DNA of 59,536 nt, filler included, from Dugesia japonica (taxonomy: Eukaryota), in assembly GCA_001938525.1 (NCBI GenBank). It is 6 parts of 6 records of this genome, joined end to end, with 100 filler letters (N's around TTAATTAATTAA, not from the genome) between each part and the next. Parts side by side here need not be neighbours in the genome. Positions count along the whole stretch, not along the records: positions 9,379 to 18,339 come from MQRL01611393.1; 5 more parts are not named here. The stretch is one strand, 5' to 3'. The notes beneath the pieces were generated by a model that saw only the letters and a list, made by a program, of their open reading frames with translations, was not told the origin of the DNA and did not search any database. The translations under genes were made by a program, and so were the position numbers. Every line of letters starts with the position of its first letter. The stretch's first letter is position 1. This document shows positions 9,279-47,945 of this stretch, in pieces.

Positions 9279-9378
9279 NNNNNNNNNNNNNNNNNNNNNN
9301 NNNNNNNNNNNNNNNNNNNNNNTTAATTAATTAANNNNNNNNNNNNNNNNNNNNNNNNNNNNNNNNNNNNNNNNNNNN
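9279..9378. other. Artificial contig-joining spacer (44N-TTAATTAATTAA-44N)
   Basis: Exactly 100 bp with stops in all six frames; identical at five places. Confidence 0.95.
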
Positions 9379-9379
9379 A

Positions 9380-12050
9380 TATATTCCTTATTTAGATGAA
9401 TTGAAAACAAATGGAATTAAATTTCCAGTAAATATTGATGATGTAAAAAACTTTGATAAGTTAAATGATTTCAAAATAAATGTGTTTATTCTAAATGCTT
9501 CTAAAGTAATTAAACTTTTATTTATTTCGCATTATGAAACTAAACCAAAACCAGAGGAAAATAAATGTANTTTATTAGTTTATAAAAATCATTTTGTTTT
9601 GGGTAGAAATGTAGAAGTATTTTATGCGATAAATAGACATAAAATCTATTCATGTATTAGATGTATGAACTCGTATAGAAGTAAAGATTTATTAACAAAG
9701 CATCAAAAAGAATGTATTAACCATGAAATATCAAATATAACATTTCCAAAACATTATAGTTATTATTATCAAAATTATTATTACAAAAATAAAATACCTT
9801 ATTTGTTTATGGTGATTTTGAAAGTTGGACTATTATTTATTCTAAAAAACAAAAACATTTATCACTTGGAATTTATGTAGTAAGTAAATATCCACATTTA
9901 ATACAAAATGAATGCAAAGAATTTTTCGGAGAAGATATTCATCAACAGTTCTTCGAATTTTTAAATGAATTAAATAATAAATTAAAAGATATAAAAGAAA
10001 ATAATTTAATTGAACATTACACTGGAACAGATAATCCAGAATTTATCCCAAATCAAAATTGTAGATATTGTGATACAGAAATAACTGAAAATCCGGTTTT
10101 AGATCACGATCACTTTAATGGGGAATTCAGAAGCTATTCTCATTTAAAATGTAATTTACAAGATAAATCAATAAAAAAATGATTTATACCATTTCCTTTG
10201 AATTTGGAAAACCAAAAGAACCATCAATAAGATTTTTAGATTCTGCAAGAATGTGTCCATTTACATCAATCAAGAAAATGGGTGAAATGTTAAATTAATC
10301 TAATAATTAAAATCATTTAAGAGAATTTAATCTAGCTCCAAAGAAACTTTCATTTCTATATGAATATATTAAAGAAGAAAATATTAATCAAGTAATTGAA
10401 TTATTAAAATCAAATAATATTCCATCAAAAGAAGATTTTAATAATATATTAAGACAAAAGAAAATAAATTATCAAGAATATAATGAATTTTTAAATGATT
10501 TTAGTAACTTTAATAATTTATTTGAATACATGATGCATCATATGAAACAAGATATAATTGTATTAGCTGATTTCTTTGAGAAATTTAGAGAAACATGTTT
10601 AAATAATTATCAAATTGATCCAAGTTATTGTTCTTCAGCTCCAAGATTAACTTGGAACTCAGGATTGAAATTTACTCAAGTAAAATTAAAATATGATCAA
10701 AAAGAAACTTATGATAGATTTATTAAAATAGAAAGAGGAGTTAGAGGAGATTATTCAGGTGTTTGTGGAGAGAGACAAGTATTTAATCAAAATAATAATA
10801 AAAATCCACATAGTAAAAGAGTAAATCAATCACAATTTGATGATTTAATAAAAATGATGAATTCAAATAAAGAAATTCCAGAAGAATACTTTGAAGAAAC
10901 ATTTTTAAAATATCTAGATGAAAATTCTTTGTATGCTAGTTGTATGACAAAACCTTTACCAACAGGTGAAATCTATAATTGTCAGGACTTAATTTATACA
11001 CCAGCAACAGATAAAATAAATTATATATATGAAGTGGATTTAGAATATCCACCTGAAATACATGAGAAAACTAAATACTTCCCTCTAGCTTCTGTTCCAA
11101 TAAATATCACAAATGAAATGTTAGGACCATATCAATTGTCATTTGAAAAGAAATTAAGTAAGAAAAATATTAAATTAACATTGAATCAATTTGATAAACA
11201 AAATTATACATTAGATTTATATTTATCTCTAGAAATGGAAATTTAAAAAATTCATAGTAAATATAAAATGCCAACAAAACCTTGATTAAAGGATTACATT
11301 CAATTTAATATCGATCGGAGAAACAAAGCTAAAAGAAATAATAATGTTTTTGGAGATTATTTCTTTAAATTATTAAAAAATGATTTCTATGGAAAAACAT
11401 TGGAAAATATTAGAAATAGATGTAATGTTTAAATTGTAGATAATGATAAAGATTATCAAAGTAAAATAATTAGTTTCAAAGAAACAGGAGAGGCATAATC
11501 AGCAAGAATTCGTCTTTATAAAACTAATTAAAAACATAATAAGTTTCCATACATAAGATTTACTATTTTAGAATATGCAAAAGAAGTTATATATGATTTT
11601 ATTTATAATTAATTAGATAAAACAATACCAAACAAGTGTAAAATTCATTATTCATATACAGATTCAATTTTTGTAGAAATAATTGGTCAATAAAATTTAA
11701 GAAAAATTGAAAGTTTATTAGGAAATAATTTATTTCAAATGAAAGATGAGAAACCTAATAATGAAATGGTTAAATAAGATTTTATAAAAGCAAAAAGTTA
11801 TATTATTCAAGACGACAAGAATATAGAAACAAAACATAAAAACTAATAAAATAGGAATGGAACATTATGATAAAGTTTTAAGTAATCCTAAATAAACAAT
11901 ATATGGAACTAATTATAGTTTAAAATCATTTAAACATGAAATAGAATTAGTTGAACAAAAGAAAATAGCGGAATAAGGATAATGTAAAAAATGTAGTGAG
12001 TGGCATTTAAGATTAGATAAATTAAAAAGAAAATTAGAATGTAGTTTAAT
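9380..12050 (+). pseudogene. Protein-primed family B DNA polymerase (pPolB) of Maverick, frameshifted
   Basis: C-x2-C...H zinc motif (SCIRCMNSY), EndoVII/HNH-like insert CRYC...DHDHFNGEFRSYSHLKCN, DIIVLADFFEKFRETC, motif A YLDENSLYASCMTKPLPTG, motif B FKLLKNDFYGKTLEN, motif C YTDSIF. Confidence 0.92.
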
Positions 12051-12185
12051 ATAAAATTAAAGTGGCGCACGCGTGAGCCGATTTTTTTAATTTCTAAATT
12101 GAAATAAAGTTGTCGTACGCGGACAATTCTTTAGAAAATCTTTAAATTATTAATTAAATTTCACTGGTGTCTGCAGACGCCAACT

Positions 12186-12890
12186 TTATTTCTTTAATTT
12201 ACTAATTATTTTCTGTTGATTTTCTATTTTTTCTTCAAGTTTTTTTAAAATATCCACTTCATTTTTAGAATGGGACCCGTTGGGATCTTTATTTTTTTCA
12301 TTTGAAATAAAATTTTTAACTTGTTTAACCATATTCTTGCTTATTGATATTTGTTCATTAGTTAAAATATCATCTGATAAAGCCTTTTGGTGAAATAAAA
12401 ATAACTTATTTTTAATACTTTCTAATTCATACATTAAAATTTTATATTTCTTCTTTTTTGATTTATTAAAGATGAATTCAAAGTTCCAATAACTGGAATA
12501 CAAGAAACTGAAGTAGTTAAAATAATTGGAATTAAACTTGCGCCAATTCCAAAAGTTCCCAAAGAAATTAATATAAGTCCAGTTATTCCACCAACTGTAC
12601 CAATTAATATTTCTCTAAATCTAATTGAAGTATCTAATCTTGACCATCTTTTATAAATCTTTTTATAATGATTAATTTTATCATCAATGAAATAAAGATC
12701 TGATTCAAAATCCACAATTCTCAAATTTGATAATGTACTTTTTAAATCTGTATATTTTTGGTCTTTAATTGAATATTCAAAATGGGACCCTTCGGGATCT
12801 TTGTAAATATATTCGTTTAAATTAGGATATTTTTTATGGGACCTTCTGGAATTTTCTCATACTCCTTCTTTCTCCACTAAATCATTCTCA
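12186..12890 (-). pseudogene. Maverick coiled-coil plus transmembrane protein (frameshifted; ORFs 12434-12724 and 12186-12503)
   Basis: HYKKIYKRWSRLD followed by a Gly-rich hydrophobic double helix (LIGTVGGITGLILISLGTFGIGASLIPII) and a coiled-coil tail. Confidence 0.55.
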
Positions 12891-13033
12891 TTCTCAGACT
12901 TTTTATTAAAAGTTAATATGAAATAATAATATTATAAATATAAATTTTTTCTGGAAAAATCAAAGTAATTCTTTCTAAAAAATTTTGGTGTGTCCTTCGA
13001 TTAATATTAATAATAAGACGAAATAACTCTTTT

Positions 13034-13579
13034 TTAGTAAACGTGAATTATTTTTTCTTCTGGAGCATTATTAATCATTATATAAATTGGAAAAAGATGT
13101 AAATCAGTATATCCATTAAATAATAAATGTACTTGTTCTAATGGTTTTTTTAAATAAAAATAAAGTACTAATGATTCTTCAAGAAAATAATGTTTATATG
13201 CTTTTCCTAAAGTAGGAAAAGATTTAAATATTTCTTTTCTTTTTATTTTAAATAGAGTTAATCCAGAATGACATGGTAATGGGAAGCCGTTGGGATCTTT
13301 CTTTTTAAATAAAGTGGTTAATCTAAAAAGAGTTTTGGAATGTGGCCCTTTGGCATTGGTAAAATTTATTTTATTGGAGTAAGGAAAATAATTATCAATT
13401 ATTTCTCTAATATTGCTTAACAAGTTTTGTCTATAAAGTTTAGTTTGGGTTGTGGCACTTTTGGTTTTATTTTGTTTTATTCTCATAATATAGTCATTAA
13501 TTTCATTAATACGATCAATATGAAGATATTGTTTTATTTTATTAAATTCTTCTAAAGGAATTAAAGGATTATTTAACAA
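13034..13579 (-). CDS. Maverick hypothetical protein
   Basis: 181-aa open frame co-oriented within the viral gene block; no recognised motif; start uncertain. Confidence 0.5.
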   Translation of the reverse strand: MLNNPLIPLEEFNKIKQYLHIDRINEINDYIMRIKQNKTKSATTQTKLYRQNLLSNIREIIDNYFPYSNKINFTNAKGPHSKTLFRLTTLFKKKDPNGFPLPCHSGLTLFKIKRKEIFKSFPTLGKAYKHYFLEESLVLYFYLKKPLEQVHLLFNGYTDLHLFPIYIMINNAPEEKIIHVY

Positions 13580-13861
13580 ATAGATCTCTCGATAGTTTTT
13601 CCAATTCTAAATTGATTTTATTAAATAATTATTATTAATTTTTTCAAAGAGCTCTGTGATTTCTTTTTTCAAATTACTCTTTGTTTGTGTTAGCGTATTA
13701 ATATTTTTATCAGTATTTATTAGTGAATTTTTGATGTTATTTATTTAATAATTAAATCAGCTTTTTTTTTAATCCAAGTTTGTTTTACTCTCCAAAAGTT
13801 GATGAATAAAAATATTTTGTGATTTAATTGATTTTTCAAATTTCTCGTTGTTTGCGTTAGC

Positions 13862-14077
13862 TCAGTTGTTTTTTTGAAATTTACTAAAATATTTTAAGTT
13901 AATAGCATCTAGTTCATTTTTGGGTTCATTAATAATTTTTAAGTTAGTAATTGAATCTCCACTTTCATTAACAAATCTTTTTTCATTGTTTATAGATTCT
14001 AATTTTAATTTTGCAGAAACATGTTTTAATATTTCTGTATTATTTTGACTATTTAAAGTTTCTCTACAAAAATTCAT
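13862..14077 (-). pseudogene. Maverick fibre/stalk-like protein, N-terminal part
   Basis: FVNESGDSITNLKIINEPKNELDAINLKY resembles the GD...I.NL..P....DA.N..Y fibre/adhesin stalk repeat; coiled-coil remnant continues downstream. Confidence 0.45.
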
Positions 14078-14093
14078 TTATTTTTTATAATGG

Positions 14094-14500
14094 TTATTTA
14101 AAATAATTCTCTAAAGGTTTCATATAATTCATTAATTANTTCATCAAATGTTTTAAAAGAAAGTGAATATAAAAAATATAAACATAATACTCCACAGATA
14201 CTAGTTCCAAAAGTTTGAACTTGAATTTCAATATATAAATTTACTTTTACTTCTATTTTTTTAAATGGTTTTAATCTATAAAAATCAAAATAATAACTTT
14301 TTGAAAAAGCAATCTAATGAGTTCTTTTTTTATTTGAATTTGGATAATAAATGATTACCGGCGCCCGCGGGACCGATTTATTATTTTACTTGTATCTTTT
14401 AATTTCTGAAGACTGCTGTCACCACTTTTATCTTTACGGGAAAGAGTGACATGCGTGTTTCGAACTTCATCTTTCATTAAAACATCAAGTTAAAGATTTA
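14094..14500 (-). pseudogene. Adenain-type (adenoviral) cysteine protease of Maverick
   Basis: Minus-strand translation LMKDEV...RTH*IAF..YYFDFY..KP...QVQTFGTSICGVLCLYFL matches GTHW / YFDSYG / Q.Q...S..CG.YC.YFL. Confidence 0.8.
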
Positions 14501-14519
14501 AAAAATCAGCAACAGAATA

Positions 14520-15110
14520 CAAATCAAAATTACTTTTAGTATGTATACCAAATGTTTTTAAAAAATATAAGATTGTATACATTTTCTTATATGAACTATA
14601 ATTTTAAAACCAAAACCAACAGTATTTACTGGAAAATAATATAATAAATTTATTGGTAATTTATTAATATAATAACTTTTAACTAAATTACAAGTAGTAT
14701 TTATCATATTAATATTTAAAATATCAATCTTATTTTCTGAGGAGTATTTTCCTGGTAGATATTCTTTAGGGAAAAAACCTAAGATTGTATGAAAAAAAGA
14801 TTTAACATCAAATTTAAAAGAATGTTTTGTTGTTAAATTATCTTTTGTTGTTGAAAGATCTGGTGTAACTTCTATTCCATAATCTTTTAATTTATTATAT
14901 ATTTTTGTAATTTCATAAGCACCTGGTTCAATCGTATTTTTGTTCTTCTTTTAAAATAAAAGTGTTATTTTTATTAGTAACATTAAAAATTATATTATAA
15001 CAACTAAAACATATTAATCCGATTTCATAGTCTGAATCTAATTCTATTGTAATTTTTAATTTAATTTTTAAATCAAATTCTTTACCAACAACTAAAAATT
15101 GATGAGACAT
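14520..15110 (-). pseudogene. Maverick minor capsid (penton-like) protein
   Basis: IELDSDYEIGL...YNIIFNVTNKNN...EPGAYEI...ILGF...SENKIDI..IN.I..TCNLV..SY, the typical Polinton penton pattern. Confidence 0.75.
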
Positions 15111-15149
15111 TTTTTTAGGTAAAGTATTTTTACTTAAAATATTTATTTT

Positions 15150-16051
15150 TATAAACAATATATTTTTCTTGAGTAATTAATTCCTTTTTTATTTATTCTT
15201 TATTAACAGATTTAATTTCTTTATCTAAATTATTATGACCAGCTTTTACAGATGAAATTAATAATGTTAATCTTTCAAAAAAAGATACTGGATCAGTGTT
15301 TAAACCATCACCTTTAATATCTTTTTCAATAGGAATTTTTATTTTAAGCTTAGGTAATTTTGAAGTTCGCTCGCCCTCAAGACTGGAAGGAGTTTCTTTT
15401 AGCCGCAGTTAAAAATTTATAATATTTAGAATTAAGACGAATTGTAATATTAAATTTATTTAAATAAATATCTTTTGCTTCTTTATCATTACTTCCATTT
15501 CCTAAAATTAAATTCATTATTTCTTCAGAGTAAGGAATTAGTTTTTGGATATTTAAAAAGTATTTNTTAGAATCTTCTTCAAATAAATATATTACTATTT
15601 GTGATCCTTTAAGATTAGGATAAATTATATTTTGGAAGTTTTTACCATCAATAACTTCTTTTTCAATTATGGGTATATTTGTTGGAGATTTTAAAAATTC
15701 AGTATTTATAATAGTATTTGAAAAGAAAGGCGTTCTATTTTCAAAAGGGTTTGAAGATTTTGTTTGGGCCCCTTTAGGGTTTGAACTTGAATGGTACCCT
15801 CTGGGATTTTCAATTGCTTTAANNATAGGCTCTTGTTGTGTAGTTAAAGTATCTTGTAAAGTTCTTGATTCGATTACATTACTAGTAAATAAATTATTAT
15901 AATCATCTTCAGCTTTAATTAATTTTTTTAAAAGTTTTATTCTTACCAACACTTCTTCACTGTCCATTTTTAAAAAATGTTTTAAATATAAACCATCATC
16001 TTTTATTTTAACCCGGATTCCATTTTTAAAGTTTTTAGTAATCAACTTCAA
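15150..16051 (-). pseudogene. Conserved Maverick structural-block protein
   Basis: C-terminal DPVSFFERLTLLISSVKAGHNNLDKEI matches the DP..L..RL.LL..S..AGN...EI motif common in Mavericks; frameshift near 15377. Confidence 0.6.
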
Positions 16052-16059
16052 TTCTGAGT

Positions 16060-16467
16060 TTGGTAAACAATTTTTTTAATATTTATGAATTGAACTTCCT
16101 TGATATGGTTTTAAGTAAAGTCTTGAAGCAGAACTAGTTTTATTTTCTAAATCTTTTTTCTGTAATTCAACTAATTCAATTTCTTTTTGTTTTTTAATTT
16201 TATCCAGAGCTTGCGCTTGAGCGGATCTAGAATTACTAACTGTACTTGCGACTGCACTGGCAGCACCAGCTGCACCTGCTATGCAGCAATTATAGCTGGT
16301 ATTGCAGCTAGAAAAGCAAATGCACCTTCATGTTCTTTTCCTAGTTTCTTTTTTATTTCTTCTTTAACTTGTTTACCAATCCAATGGTTTTTACCATTAA
16401 TTTTTATAGATCTTCTTTTATTTGAATTTACTAAATCAATTAATATATGTTCTGATACTGAAGACAT
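16060..16467 (-). pseudogene. Maverick core/membrane-lytic-like small protein (adenain-substrate type)
   Basis: HEGAFAFLAAIPAIIAA...GAAGAASAVA...RLYLKPYQGS resembles xxGG/FL-hydrophobic and G.GLYL.PY.G motifs. Confidence 0.55.
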
Positions 16468-16498
16468 TTTGTTAAGATAAACTTTTTTACTTATAAAA

Positions 16499-17095
16499 AT
16501 GGAATATAGTGAGAAAGAAAGAATGATGTGAAAAGAGATAACAGATTTTTTACAAGATAATAATAACTTAGAGTTGTTTATTGAAGACCATAAATATTGT
16601 AAATGTTTTGTACATATATATGAATATATTAAATTTACACAAGTAAAATTAAAAGATCCCAGTAGGTCCCATGAAGTAAAATTTAAAGATCCCAGAGGGT
16701 CCCGTAATAGAAGATTTGAAAATAAAACTAATCATAAAGTTGAACCAGAAATCCCAGAGGGCCCCATTAAAGGTATTTATGTATATAAAACCGAATCTAG
16801 ATCACTGCTTGAATATAAATATAAATATCCTTGAGGGGCCCAACCTCCAGAACAATCAAACTTAGAAGAACCTAGAGGGGCTCAACCAAAACAATTGAAC
16901 AAGTATTTATTGAATTTCACGAAGAATCCCAAACTGAACAACCTTCTTCACCTTTAACAAGAGTTAAATTTAAATATAGATTTTTCAAACAACAATGTTT
17001 AAGTTCTTTCAAAAGTACTAAAATAGATTTACCTGAGATTATCCCCATTGAAAATAATACATGTATAGATTCAATAATTATTAATATTAAAACAT
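16499..17095 (+). pseudogene. Maverick hypothetical protein, rich in GC micro-palindromes
   Basis: Degenerate frame from ATG 16499 that includes ORF 16574-16834; divergent from the structural block. Confidence 0.45.
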
Positions 17096-17225
17096 NNNNN
17101 NNNNNNNNNNNNNNNNNNNNNNNNNNNNNNNNNNNNNNNNNNNNNNNNNNNNNNNNNNNNNNNNNNNNNNNNNNNNNNNNNNNNNNNNNNNNNNNNNNNN
17201 NNNNNNNNNNNNNNNNNNNNNNNNN

Positions 17226-18323
17226 AATATAAACTATTCTTATCAATATATTACTAAATTAATGAGATATTATAATTTATGTGAAAAACATCCAATTTTA
17301 TTTACTTGTACATTGTCTTGGTATAAAATAAATAATAATTTTAAAAGAACGAAGAAATTTTAAACCAAGATAATGAAATAATTTTAGATGTAGAAACTTT
17401 AAATAGAGAAGAAGATGAATATTCAGATGAAGATCCCTAAAGGTCCCATTTTTGAGTGAAAAGTTTCCGGCCAGGAAATTATCATATCTTTTTTACATCT
17501 TTAACTCTAAAATAAGTCTTCCATTAAAATNNNNNNNNNNNNNNNNNNNNNNNNNNNNNNNNNNNNNNNNNNNNNNNNNNNNNNNNNNNNNNNNNNNNNN
17601 NNNNNNNNNNNNNNNNNNNNNNNNNNNNNNNNNNNNNNNNNNNNNNNNNNNNNNNNNNNNNNNNNNNNNNNNNNNNNNNNNNNNNNNNNNNNNNNNNNNN
17701 NNNNNNNNNNNNNNNNNNNNNNNNNNNNNNNNNNNNNNNNNNNNNNNNNNNNNNNNNNNNNNNNNNNNNNNNNNNNNNNNNNTTTCTGAATTTCTTGATC
17801 TTTCACATTTACAACATCTTCAAAAATTATTAAATTCTTTTTCTGTTTAGATAATTTATCACAAGGAATAATTTCATTTGGTTTATTACTTAANNNNNNN
17901 NNNNNNNNNNNNNNNNNNNNNNNNNNNNNNNNNNNNNNNNNNNAGAAGATATTTACAAATTTTAGCTACAAAAGTAGATAGAAATAAGTCTGAACTTTTG
18001 AAAATAATGAAAGATAACAATATAAACTATTCTTATCAATATATTACTAAATTAATGAGATATTATAATTTATGTGAAAAACATCCAATTTTATTTACTT
18101 GTACATTGTCTTGGTATAAAATAAAGAATAATTTTAAAAGAACGAAGAAATTTTAAACCAAGATAATGAAATAATTTTAGATTTAGAAACTTTAAATAGA
18201 GAAGAAGATGAATATTCAGATGAAGATCCCTAAAGGTCCCATCCTTGAGTGAAAAGTTTCCGGCAAGGAAATTATCATATCTTTTTTACATCTTTAACTC
18301 TAAAATAAGTCTTCCATTAAAAT
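17226..18323 (+). repeat. Near-identical ~305-bp direct duplication (17226-17530 and 18019-18323)
   Basis: Same sequence with a few substitutions; both copies lie next to N gaps. Confidence 0.85.
17785..18156 (+). pseudogene. Maverick hypothetical protein (gapped)
   Basis: YITKLMRYYNLCEKHPILFTCTLSWYKIKNN; 3' part duplicated at 17226-17363. Confidence 0.45.
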
Positions 18324-18339
18324 GTTGGCTTCTCTATCT

Positions 18340-18439
18340 NNNNNNNNNNNNNNNNNNNNNNNNNNNNNNNNNNNNNNNNNNNNTTAATTAATTAANNNNN
18401 NNNNNNNNNNNNNNNNNNNNNNNNNNNNNNNNNNNNNNN
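18340..18439. other. Artificial contig-joining spacer
   Basis: 44N-TTAATTAATTAA-44N. Confidence 0.95.
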
Positions 18440-29625: not shown

Positions 29626-29725
29626 NNNNNNNNNNNNNNNNNNNNNNNNNNNNNNNNNNNNNNNNNNNNTTAATTAATTAANNNNNNNNNNNNNNNNNNN
29701 NNNNNNNNNNNNNNNNNNNNNNNNN
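29626..29725. other. Artificial contig-joining spacer
   Basis: 44N-TTAATTAATTAA-44N. Confidence 0.95.
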
Positions 29726-38524: not shown

Positions 38525-38624
38525 NNNNNNNNNNNNNNNNNNNNNNNNNNNNNNNNNNNNNNNNNNNNTTAATTAATTAANNNNNNNNNNNNNNNNNNNN
38601 NNNNNNNNNNNNNNNNNNNNNNNN
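38525..38624. other. Artificial contig-joining spacer
   Basis: 44N-TTAATTAATTAA-44N. Confidence 0.95.
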
Positions 38625-47845: not shown

Positions 47846-47945
47846 NNNNNNNNNNNNNNNNNNNNNNNNNNNNNNNNNNNNNNNNNNNNTTAATTAATTA
47901 ANNNNNNNNNNNNNNNNNNNNNNNNNNNNNNNNNNNNNNNNNNNN
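47846..47945. other. Artificial contig-joining spacer
   Basis: 44N-TTAATTAATTAA-44N. Confidence 0.95.

Follow-up and report, generated by a model that had tools for sequence, protein, structure and literature searches.

A 13-bp unit with a doubled dinucleotide inserted repeatedly in Maverick genes of Dugesia japonica

Introduction

Why does one short GC-rich word recur throughout the genes of a Maverick of Dugesia japonica: as a protein motif, as a signal, or as a mobile sequence? The question arose in the window, that is, the whole stretch of 59,536 nucleotides analysed here, a chain of contigs with N-linkers in which the Maverick piece occupies positions 9379-18339 (MQRL01611393.1). The initial annotation had described a 16-bp hairpin there and offered two readings, a mobile micro-palindrome or a strand-specific functional signal.

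Results

By its genes, namely pPolB, an A32-type ATPase and a retroviral-like integrase, the host element is a Maverick/Polinton. The pPolB of the contig finds homologues at E 1e-51, and the other two genes were recognised in sister copies, the ATPase by PF04665 above cut-off and the integrase through homologues with PF00665. A capsid candidate reached an atlas score of 0.97 to PF21738 clusters, with recognition below the tool threshold and no Pfam match, and no homologues were found for a membrane-protein ORF. The Maverick ends fall beyond the contig. More than a thousand related Maverick pieces are present in the genome, and dozens of sites have both filled and empty alleles; the family is abundant among short contigs of two DNA runs (1328 and 1455 contigs), whose alignments showed no 15-bp gap but, the contigs being short, do not bear on the junctions. 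Two RNA runs yielded 7 and 3 partial reads, every one less than 95% alike and uninformative as to expression. The features of the piece are:

9379..18339, no strand assigned: contig with the decayed Maverick/Polinton piece (G000:C611393), host of the inserts
9380..11243, plus strand: broken pPolB gene pieces, no insert in this copy
9793-10179: weak endonuclease VII/HNH-like stretch inside the pPolB pieces (19.2 bits, Pfam cut-off 23.6)
12270..12286, minus strand: insert with loop AAC, giving the peptide D-P-N-G-S-H; 15 bp missing from homologues, in which the right flank has diverged
12782..12798, minus strand: insert with loop GAA, giving D-P-E-G-S-H; empty alleles clean, AT present once
12836..12852, minus strand: decayed insert with loop AGA; other copies have empty alleles or arrays of two units
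13279..13296, minus strand: old, almost fixed insert with a 14-nt variant of the core; two divergent copies are shorter by 15 bp
13340..13356, minus strand: decayed insert; other copies have 0, 1 or 2 units, and alleles without a unit are mostly shorter by 12 bp
15764..15780, minus strand: old decayed insert common to a subfamily
15791..15807, minus strand: insert with loop AGA; empty alleles clean, AT present once
16207..16224, minus strand: GC-rich stretch with kinship to a second family of inserts; copies differ by a 21-bp indel
16656..16672, plus strand: insert with loop AGT, within a local duplication; L046 has the empty site
16689..16705, plus strand: insert with loop AGA, giving D-P-R-G-S; empty alleles shorter by 15 bp
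16751..16767, plus strand: insert with loop AGA, giving I-P-E-G-P-I; empty alleles shorter by 15 bp
16827..16843, plus strand: decayed insert; several copies 18 bp shorter
16869..16885, plus strand: decayed match to the unit, candidate insert
17433..17449, plus strand: insert, TAA loop in frame after D-P at a gene end; empty allele in L077
18226..18242, plus strand: second copy of the 17433 site, in a 305-bp duplicate

About 13 recurrences had been claimed, and indeed all 14 positions named carry the 13-nt core with at most two substitutions and on the strands given; as 17432 and 18225 lie inside the 305-bp duplicate (300/305 identical), they represent 13 independent positions. The 16-mer pattern matched 10 times at up to two mismatches, against 0.93 +/- 0.91 expected, and 0/100 shuffles reached 10. 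The supposed confinement to 12272-18240 was not upheld, since the element also lies beyond this range and in pPolB genes. Its reported absence from pPolB is correct for this copy but not for others, whose pPolB carries the unit, as do their integrase, ATPase and protease-like genes. In the rest of the window, beyond the Maverick contig, loose matches to the core number 8, at 5 places, and AT never flanks them on both sides.

The recurring motif is genuine, but its length had to be revised: rather than a 16-mer, the unit is a core of 13 bp, CCC-NNN-GGG-N-CCC, accompanied by a target dinucleotide, in most cases AT, that is doubled. One insertion thus lengthens the sequence by 15 bp (five codons), and the reading frame is kept. 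AT was found on both flanks in 87/100 cases (the first 100 free-flank matches). The short direct repeat beside the unit, single when the site is empty, is AT in most cases, and AC and AA at two sites; empty alleles of the AC/AC site have one AC (5) or AT (7), and those of the AA/AA site one AA (15) or AG (9). This single copy at empty AC- and AA-flanked sites indicates that the doubled bases derive from the target. Flanks match in just 8/15 non-AT sites, two of these 8 having discordant empty alleles, and at one site of a sister family TA, AA or CA make up the two additional bases, with no doubled AT. Length variants, of +13 where the site reads ATAT and of +12 where it reads ATTAT, hint at microhomology. 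A purine occupies position -1 in 42/48, a preference confounded with codon position.

Genome-wide scanning bore out the predicted enrichment, with 682 exact 16-mer matches versus 3 for the control, and 65 of 69 sampled loci link to Mavericks; among 40 sampled GGGACCC loci, 26 had no match to the Maverick proteins used. Alignment of other copies likewise revealed the anticipated presence/absence pattern, alleles exactly 15 bp shorter occurring at 30 of 42 testable site clusters, 27 of these 30 with AT at the junction; the other 12 clusters have no 15-bp allele. When element-free alleles were pooled, 126/235 were 15 shorter. In a motif-blind survey of indels of up to 80 nt, 15 nt was the commonest length among 181 events, and 21 of the 32 15-nt events carry the unit. 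Identical junctions are common to as many as 16 distinct contexts. As for pPolB, 5 units, no two with the same loop, are spread over 4 of 29 copies, and these 4 are not a clade; such scattered carriers with different loops evidence repeated independent gains. We hold it as nearly certain that the motif is real and an insertion. For the reading as a whole, in which a 13-bp unit was inserted repeatedly with a doubled dinucleotide and the replication enzymes of the Maverick itself probably copied it from units already present, chances are about even.

Adjacent tandem units share their loop in 3/13 pairs (0/2 for perfect dimers). Neighbouring loops thus mostly differ, and slippage was for the most part rejected as the source of the arrays. 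The proposed micro-palindrome survives as a mobile, in-frame micro-element, on account of the 15-bp alleles, whereas its hairpin label is weak: the common predicted stem spans 3 bp and folds no better than shuffles (z near 0), and the hairpin was accordingly discarded as a signal on predicted folding. GNA-type triloops are reported as unusually stable in the cited passages, which derive the rule on a GC stem (PMC13037366). An extraordinarily stable GNA mini-hairpin does not fit the unit either, the loop being GAA in 5 and GGA in 1 of 91 clusters, and most commonly AAA (43). With a 3-bp stem and an AAA loop that is not GNA, folding gives no reason why this 13-mer is copied.

The unit had also been said to follow the coding strand. 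The bias is strong (32:6 sense:antisense) but no absolute rule, as 6 of the 38 units inside genes are antisense; outside genes, 6 sense and 3 antisense units are too few for an orientation call. This bias, seen on genes of both strands, would be mechanistic if a reverse transcriptase primed at a nick copied the word from a Maverick transcript, and a second, unrelated insert family is likewise sense-oriented in 59/61 assigned contexts, from few independent sites. Copying by reverse transcriptase has been proposed for MUSE1 (PMC2670323) and considered for yeast GC clusters (PMC4478555), in the portions of these papers cited here. Nevertheless, we judge this route unlikely: no reverse transcriptase was noticed among the Maverick genes examined, without a dedicated search, a host enzyme should seed host DNA too and the sampled matches are almost all Maverick-linked, and clean sites show neither poly-A tails nor flank carry-over.

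Quite unlikely is that the word originated, or still acts, as a functional cis-signal (a promoter, a packaging site or a protein-binding site) whose extra copies spread by helping the virus. The core does persist while the left flank varies, and sister subfamilies have a GGGACCC variant repeatedly in intergenic positions, next to pPolB and within an upstream module that is itself repeated. However, most copies have no unit at most sites, 25/29 pPolB stretches have none, the related upstream module of L124 is devoid of it, and antisense units exist within genes, all of which disfavours the strand-specific signal initially considered; moreover, function alone would not account for the origin of 15-bp insertions.

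Several DNA transposon groups typically make a 2-bp target duplication, and loop variation could reflect repair, as would be anticipated if the units were excision footprints of a larger Maverick-targeting DNA transposon that doubles two bases. We deem this very improbable, because the core does not consist of two inverted-repeat ends, because, in contrast to typical footprints, it hardly varies in length, and because indels of up to 80 nt included no longer element bounded by such ends.

Finally, despite the fragmented assembly and the one duplicated site, the readings as a conserved protein motif, as chance or as an artefact of assembly can practically be dismissed, as already refuted by the exact empty alleles, with further evidence against them in the 682 versus 3 genome matches, the same junctions in up to 16 contexts, the occurrence of units in three reading frames and on both strands, and the absence of the peptides from 54 and 150 distant pPolB homologues. 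These last two observations agree with the original proposals that the motif is read in different frames, which are as first described, and is not conserved at the protein level. Frame usage is skewed at the borderline (p = 0.051), the least used sense frame being hydrophilic, both of which weigh against the preferred reading.

Discussion

Helitrons insert between A and T without duplication and have a CTRR 3' end. The duplication at the AC/AC and AA/AA sites and the lack of a CTRR end led us to reject this class, the AT sites being ambiguous. In-frame insertion is known for Rickettsia palindromic elements and Nostocaceae small dispersed repeats. Both, together with the REP/REPIN-RAYT repeats, resemble the Maverick unit as short non-autonomous repeats, but they are bacterial, longer and truly palindromic, and REPINs are described with a dedicated transposase (PMC3116915), a gene of which no counterpart was recognised here.

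The unit fits the informal class of ultra-short invasive elements, being a dispersed short GC-rich word in AT-rich DNA with presence/absence variation. Closest among known systems, along with the yeast GC clusters, is MUSE1 of Podospora anserina, an ultra-short mitochondrial element of 11 bp with >100 copies according to the sections cited (PMC7218506, PMC2670323). Both are invasive, numerous, encode nothing and move by an unproven mechanism, but MUSE1 resides in a fungal mitochondrion and the Maverick unit in a virus-like element of a nuclear genome, with 13 bp, a 2-bp doubling and in-frame coding insertions at dozens of sites. The yeast mitochondrial GC clusters, as depicted in the cited extract (PMC4478555), are similarly GC-rich words in AT-rich DNA with presence/absence polymorphism, merging units and short flanking direct repeats (AG or ACT). 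Yet GC42 is palindromic and 42 nt long; a ~40-nt stem-loop of mitochondrial DNA was rejected as a model for a 13-nt unit with a 3-bp stem that barely folds, prefers AT and sits in a Maverick. Pithovirus M1/M2 are MITE-like, non-coding repeats of about 140 nt with 47-54-bp inverted ends and TA as putative duplication, as far as the cited text goes (PMC10664404). They too invade the genome of a eukaryotic DNA virus with a 2-bp duplication, putative in their case, but the Maverick unit lies mostly in genes and has no terminal inverted repeats; both its ends read CCC on the same strand, which does not fit a MITE.

A tandem-unit pattern scan of viral sequences gave 0 matches, and a single-unit scan 1 viral and 11 metagenome matches, none of which fits Maverick proteins and one of which is an unrelated 39-bp tandem repeat. 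No related loci were found in viral contigs, which does not imply a narrow range. Among the papers listed in the literature searches, no Maverick or viral precedent for such an element was found.

How might the Maverick's own enzymes copy the unit? Insertion would take place while the Maverick replicates outside the chromosome, a setting suggested by the fact that inserts keep frame and sister copies share them. A 2-nt staggered break at A-N, possibly made by the HNH/endonuclease VII-like domain in pPolB, would give a 3' end able to pair with AT beside an existing unit; pPolB would then copy the 13 bases before the ends rejoin. Such pairing would explain both the AT preference and the tandem arrays, and protein-level selection would keep mainly sense-strand, turn-like peptides (P-K-G-S-H, I-P-K-G-P). 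An HNH domain is present in some Polinton pPolBs (10.1101/2023.08.22.554363), and polymerases of the protein-primed kind use short repeats to realign during initiation (PMC5175343), as stated in the parts cited. Against this series of staggered nick, pPolB copying and protein filter, which we find plausible but on balance somewhat doubtful, jumping back is documented at initiation and not mid-template, and the endonuclease VII match falls below the Pfam cut-off.

For the question of how ultra-short repeats such as MUSE1, GC clusters and bacterial micro-repeats move, filled and empty alleles in an element of few genes render the target rule, donor inheritance and candidate enzymes testable. If copied by Maverick enzymes, the unit would be among the smallest mobile DNA elements described, and the mechanism above, if true, would amount to polymerase-driven transposition without transposase and without an RNA step. 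More tentatively, the 13-base word may be a parasite of a eukaryotic DNA virus, copied in frame by a nuclease-bearing polymerase and one of several micro-elements with lineage-specific variants, and similar inserts may remodel Maverick proteins in other organisms. The inserts serve as markers for dating Maverick subfamilies, and offer virus-like elements a route to gain five-residue loops, new stops and possible starts.

Results

Scanning the window for RATCCCNNNGGGWYCC at ≤2 mismatches returned 10 matches (0.93 expected), every one within 12272-18240, and the 13-nt core CCC-NNN-GGG-N-CCC recovered all 14 positions of the initial annotation, although 17432 and 18225 proved to be a single site, carried by a 305-bp near-identical duplicate (17226-17530 and 18019-18323, between N gaps) that is either an assembly artefact or a local duplication. 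The contigs of the window are chained by N-TTAATTAATTAA-N linkers, so that sequences on either side need not be genomic neighbours:

9279-9378, linker
18340-18439, linker
29626-29725, linker
38525-38624, linker
47846-47945, linker

The segment 9379-18339 is one contig containing broken pPolB pieces (54 homologues, best E 1e-51). Sister copies contribute an ATPase of the A32 type that passes Pfam's cut-off, together with a phospholipase-like/integrase ORF and what is probably a capsid gene, so the contig's Maverick label, resting on gene content, is sound. An ORF at 16079-16400 (-), which we take to resemble the adenovirus pX core protein precursor, had no database match.

Alignment of copies at the window sites distinguished empty alleles with a single AT from filled alleles reading AT, 13-nt core, AT. 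From 230 fetched loci (3 excluded as self or duplicate) and the window contig we obtained 223 instances, reducing to 177 contexts and, by flank, to 91 clusters, of which some represent one and the same site. An allele exactly 15 bp shorter was found in 30 of the 42 clusters with a well-aligned element-free homologue, with AT at the junction in 27; the remaining 12 differed in other lengths, in part owing to adjacent indels. Pooled, 126/235 element-free alleles were 15 shorter. A motif-blind survey of 9-80-nt indels in six regions, in which alignment variants may double-count one event, yielded 181 events, most commonly of 15 nt (32 events, 21 with the unit), none being listed for the capsid region. 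These presence/absence alleles bear out the proposal of a mobile micro-element tolerated in frame, a reading that is well supported. The reported absence of the motif from pPolB holds for the window copy but not for the family, as 4 of the 29 pPolB 3' parts compared carry units, five in total with five different loops (the NNN of the core). Their scatter on the tree (FastTree, midpoint root) and their different loops point to independent gains.

A free-flank search, with C excluded beside the core, gave 334 matches, and 87 of the first 100 had AT on both sides. Flanks of A plus a base other than T yielded 29 matches at 15 sites, eight with matching pairs (4 AC, 3 AA, 1 AG). One AC site had empty alleles with a single dinucleotide, AC in 5 and AT in 7, and one AA site had the same arrangement, with AA in 15 and AG in 9; of the other matched sites, two had discordant empty alleles and four had none. 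Judged from these alignments, the flanking dinucleotide is target-derived; the single AC and AA also argue against Helitron-like entry between A and T. Every insertion creates fresh AT targets, and arrays comprise 2-3 units. As neighbouring units rarely share a loop (3/13 pairs; neither of two perfect dimers), arrays grew mostly by separate insertions.

Genome-wide, there were 682 exact 16-mer matches versus 3 for the reversed control. Among the first 69 contigs of the matches listed, all short and hence a biased sample, 54 directly matched Maverick loci or proteins, 11 more were linked indirectly through other sampled loci and 4 were unlinked. Window-DNA searches of the genome reported 1681 and 3150 candidates, 40 of each being scored. 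Pattern scans outside the D. japonica genome gave unrelated matches only. A 39-bp tandem repeat similar to the motif lies on an unrelated metagenome contig (L237:1-370), next to a fragment that presumably resembles a LINE.

A codon model, agreeing in strand with tblastn at 30/30 check sites, placed 45 clusters in coding sequence, 39 sense and 6 antisense, or 32 versus 6 after merging likely duplicates (p = 2.4e-5). The motif thus follows the coding strand as a bias, with six antisense units departing from the rule first proposed. Sense frames numbered 19, 11 and 2, where the placement of AT would predict 14.8, 9.3 and 7.9 (p = 0.051). With an AAA loop all frames are open in both orientations, so stop codons do not explain the bias. 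Antisense peptides are less hydrophilic than sense ones and contain Trp or Phe, in keeping with a protein filter; near-gene control sites number only 9 (6 sense to 3 antisense), and the bias may instead be linked to transcription. One antisense unit lies where a K/E-rich open frame begins (L006:486-971) and provides the first ATG codons of that frame. Unit peptides were absent from 54 and 150 pPolB homologues, contrary to a conserved protein motif.

The hairpin label found little support: shuffled sequences folded as well as the six 28-mers spanning three units (z -0.6 to +0.7), the CCC/GGG stem alone being predicted in five of the six. Loops among the 91 clusters were AAA (43), AAC (17), AGA (12), GAA (5) and others; since unusually stable mini-hairpins require a GNA loop, according to excerpts of PMC13037366, most units do not qualify.

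A sister-lineage form of the core, GGGACCC, gave 616 matches with more varied flanks. Of 40 sampled loci, 14 matched Maverick proteins (44-76% identity); the other 26, situated mostly within acidic repeat-rich ORFs, had no match to the Maverick seed proteins used, which makes their link to Mavericks putative. At one protease-gene site, 12/34 rows were filled (5 picked for the motif) and 22 were exactly 15 bp shorter, the extra two bases being TA, AA or CA. The variant also occurs in intergenic arrays adjoining pPolB, with several copies in the AT-rich tandem arrays immediately before and after the gene (L121, L145, L093, L009, L130), and in a repeated intergenic module of a sister subfamily (L113, L116, L118, L124, L134, L147), consisting of a short palindrome, the variant and then a small TTCG-type-loop hairpin. 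In several cases the module lies directly upstream of a start codon, and it is a candidate promoter.

GC-rich inserts of 12-54 bp form a second family, based on a GCGAAGC-type word read R-E-A-Q-A-E-G. These inserts, likewise sense-oriented, are polymorphic in genes for pPolB, integrase and protease and in accessory genes:

L074:790-830, second-family insert
L151, second-family insert
L152, second-family insert
L165, second-family insert
L199, second-family insert
Window 16207-16224, related stretch
Window 15366-15392, related stretch

One surface-loop-like position in the pPolB 3' part (L154, L159, L163, L075) holds several independent inserts of both families.

Discussion

The unit resembles known ultra-short mobile repeats. 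Its working is like that of MUSE1 (11 bp, >100 copies), as summarized in parts of the citing papers PMC7218506 and PMC2670323, and of yeast GC clusters, as described in excerpts of PMC4478555. A MITE identity was rejected, as were REPIN and pithovirus repeat identities on comparison with portions of PMC3116915 and PMC10664404. Palindromes described for a virophage/PLV set are terminal in the sections consulted (10.64898/2026.07.28.741278). In agreement with the initial annotation, we found no report of such an element for Mavericks in the literature searched.

That the units are concentrated in Mavericks, keep the reading frame and are shared by sister copies would place the insertion events in the replicating element. 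We hypothesize that the target is broken with a 2-nt stagger and that the resulting 3' end primes at the AT adjoining an existing unit, which would yield target-derived doubling, AT preference and arrays. The enzyme is putative: the window pPolB has a weakly matching endonuclease VII-like stretch, some Polinton pPolBs carry HNH domains (excerpts of 10.1101/2023.08.22.554363), and realignment on short repeats is described for protein-primed polymerases during initiation (excerpts of PMC5175343). This nuclease/polymerase hypothesis leaves the choice of word unaccounted for, and its rivals are copying of the unit by an RNA-templated route, the unit as a functional signal, and the unit as a transposon footprint.

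In another organism's Maverick integrase (P0056), an 8-residue Ala/Gly/Pro-rich insertion containing P-K-G occupies the integrase position of the second-family insert in L074. This protein sequence is a lead that micro-inserts may also occur in other Mavericks.
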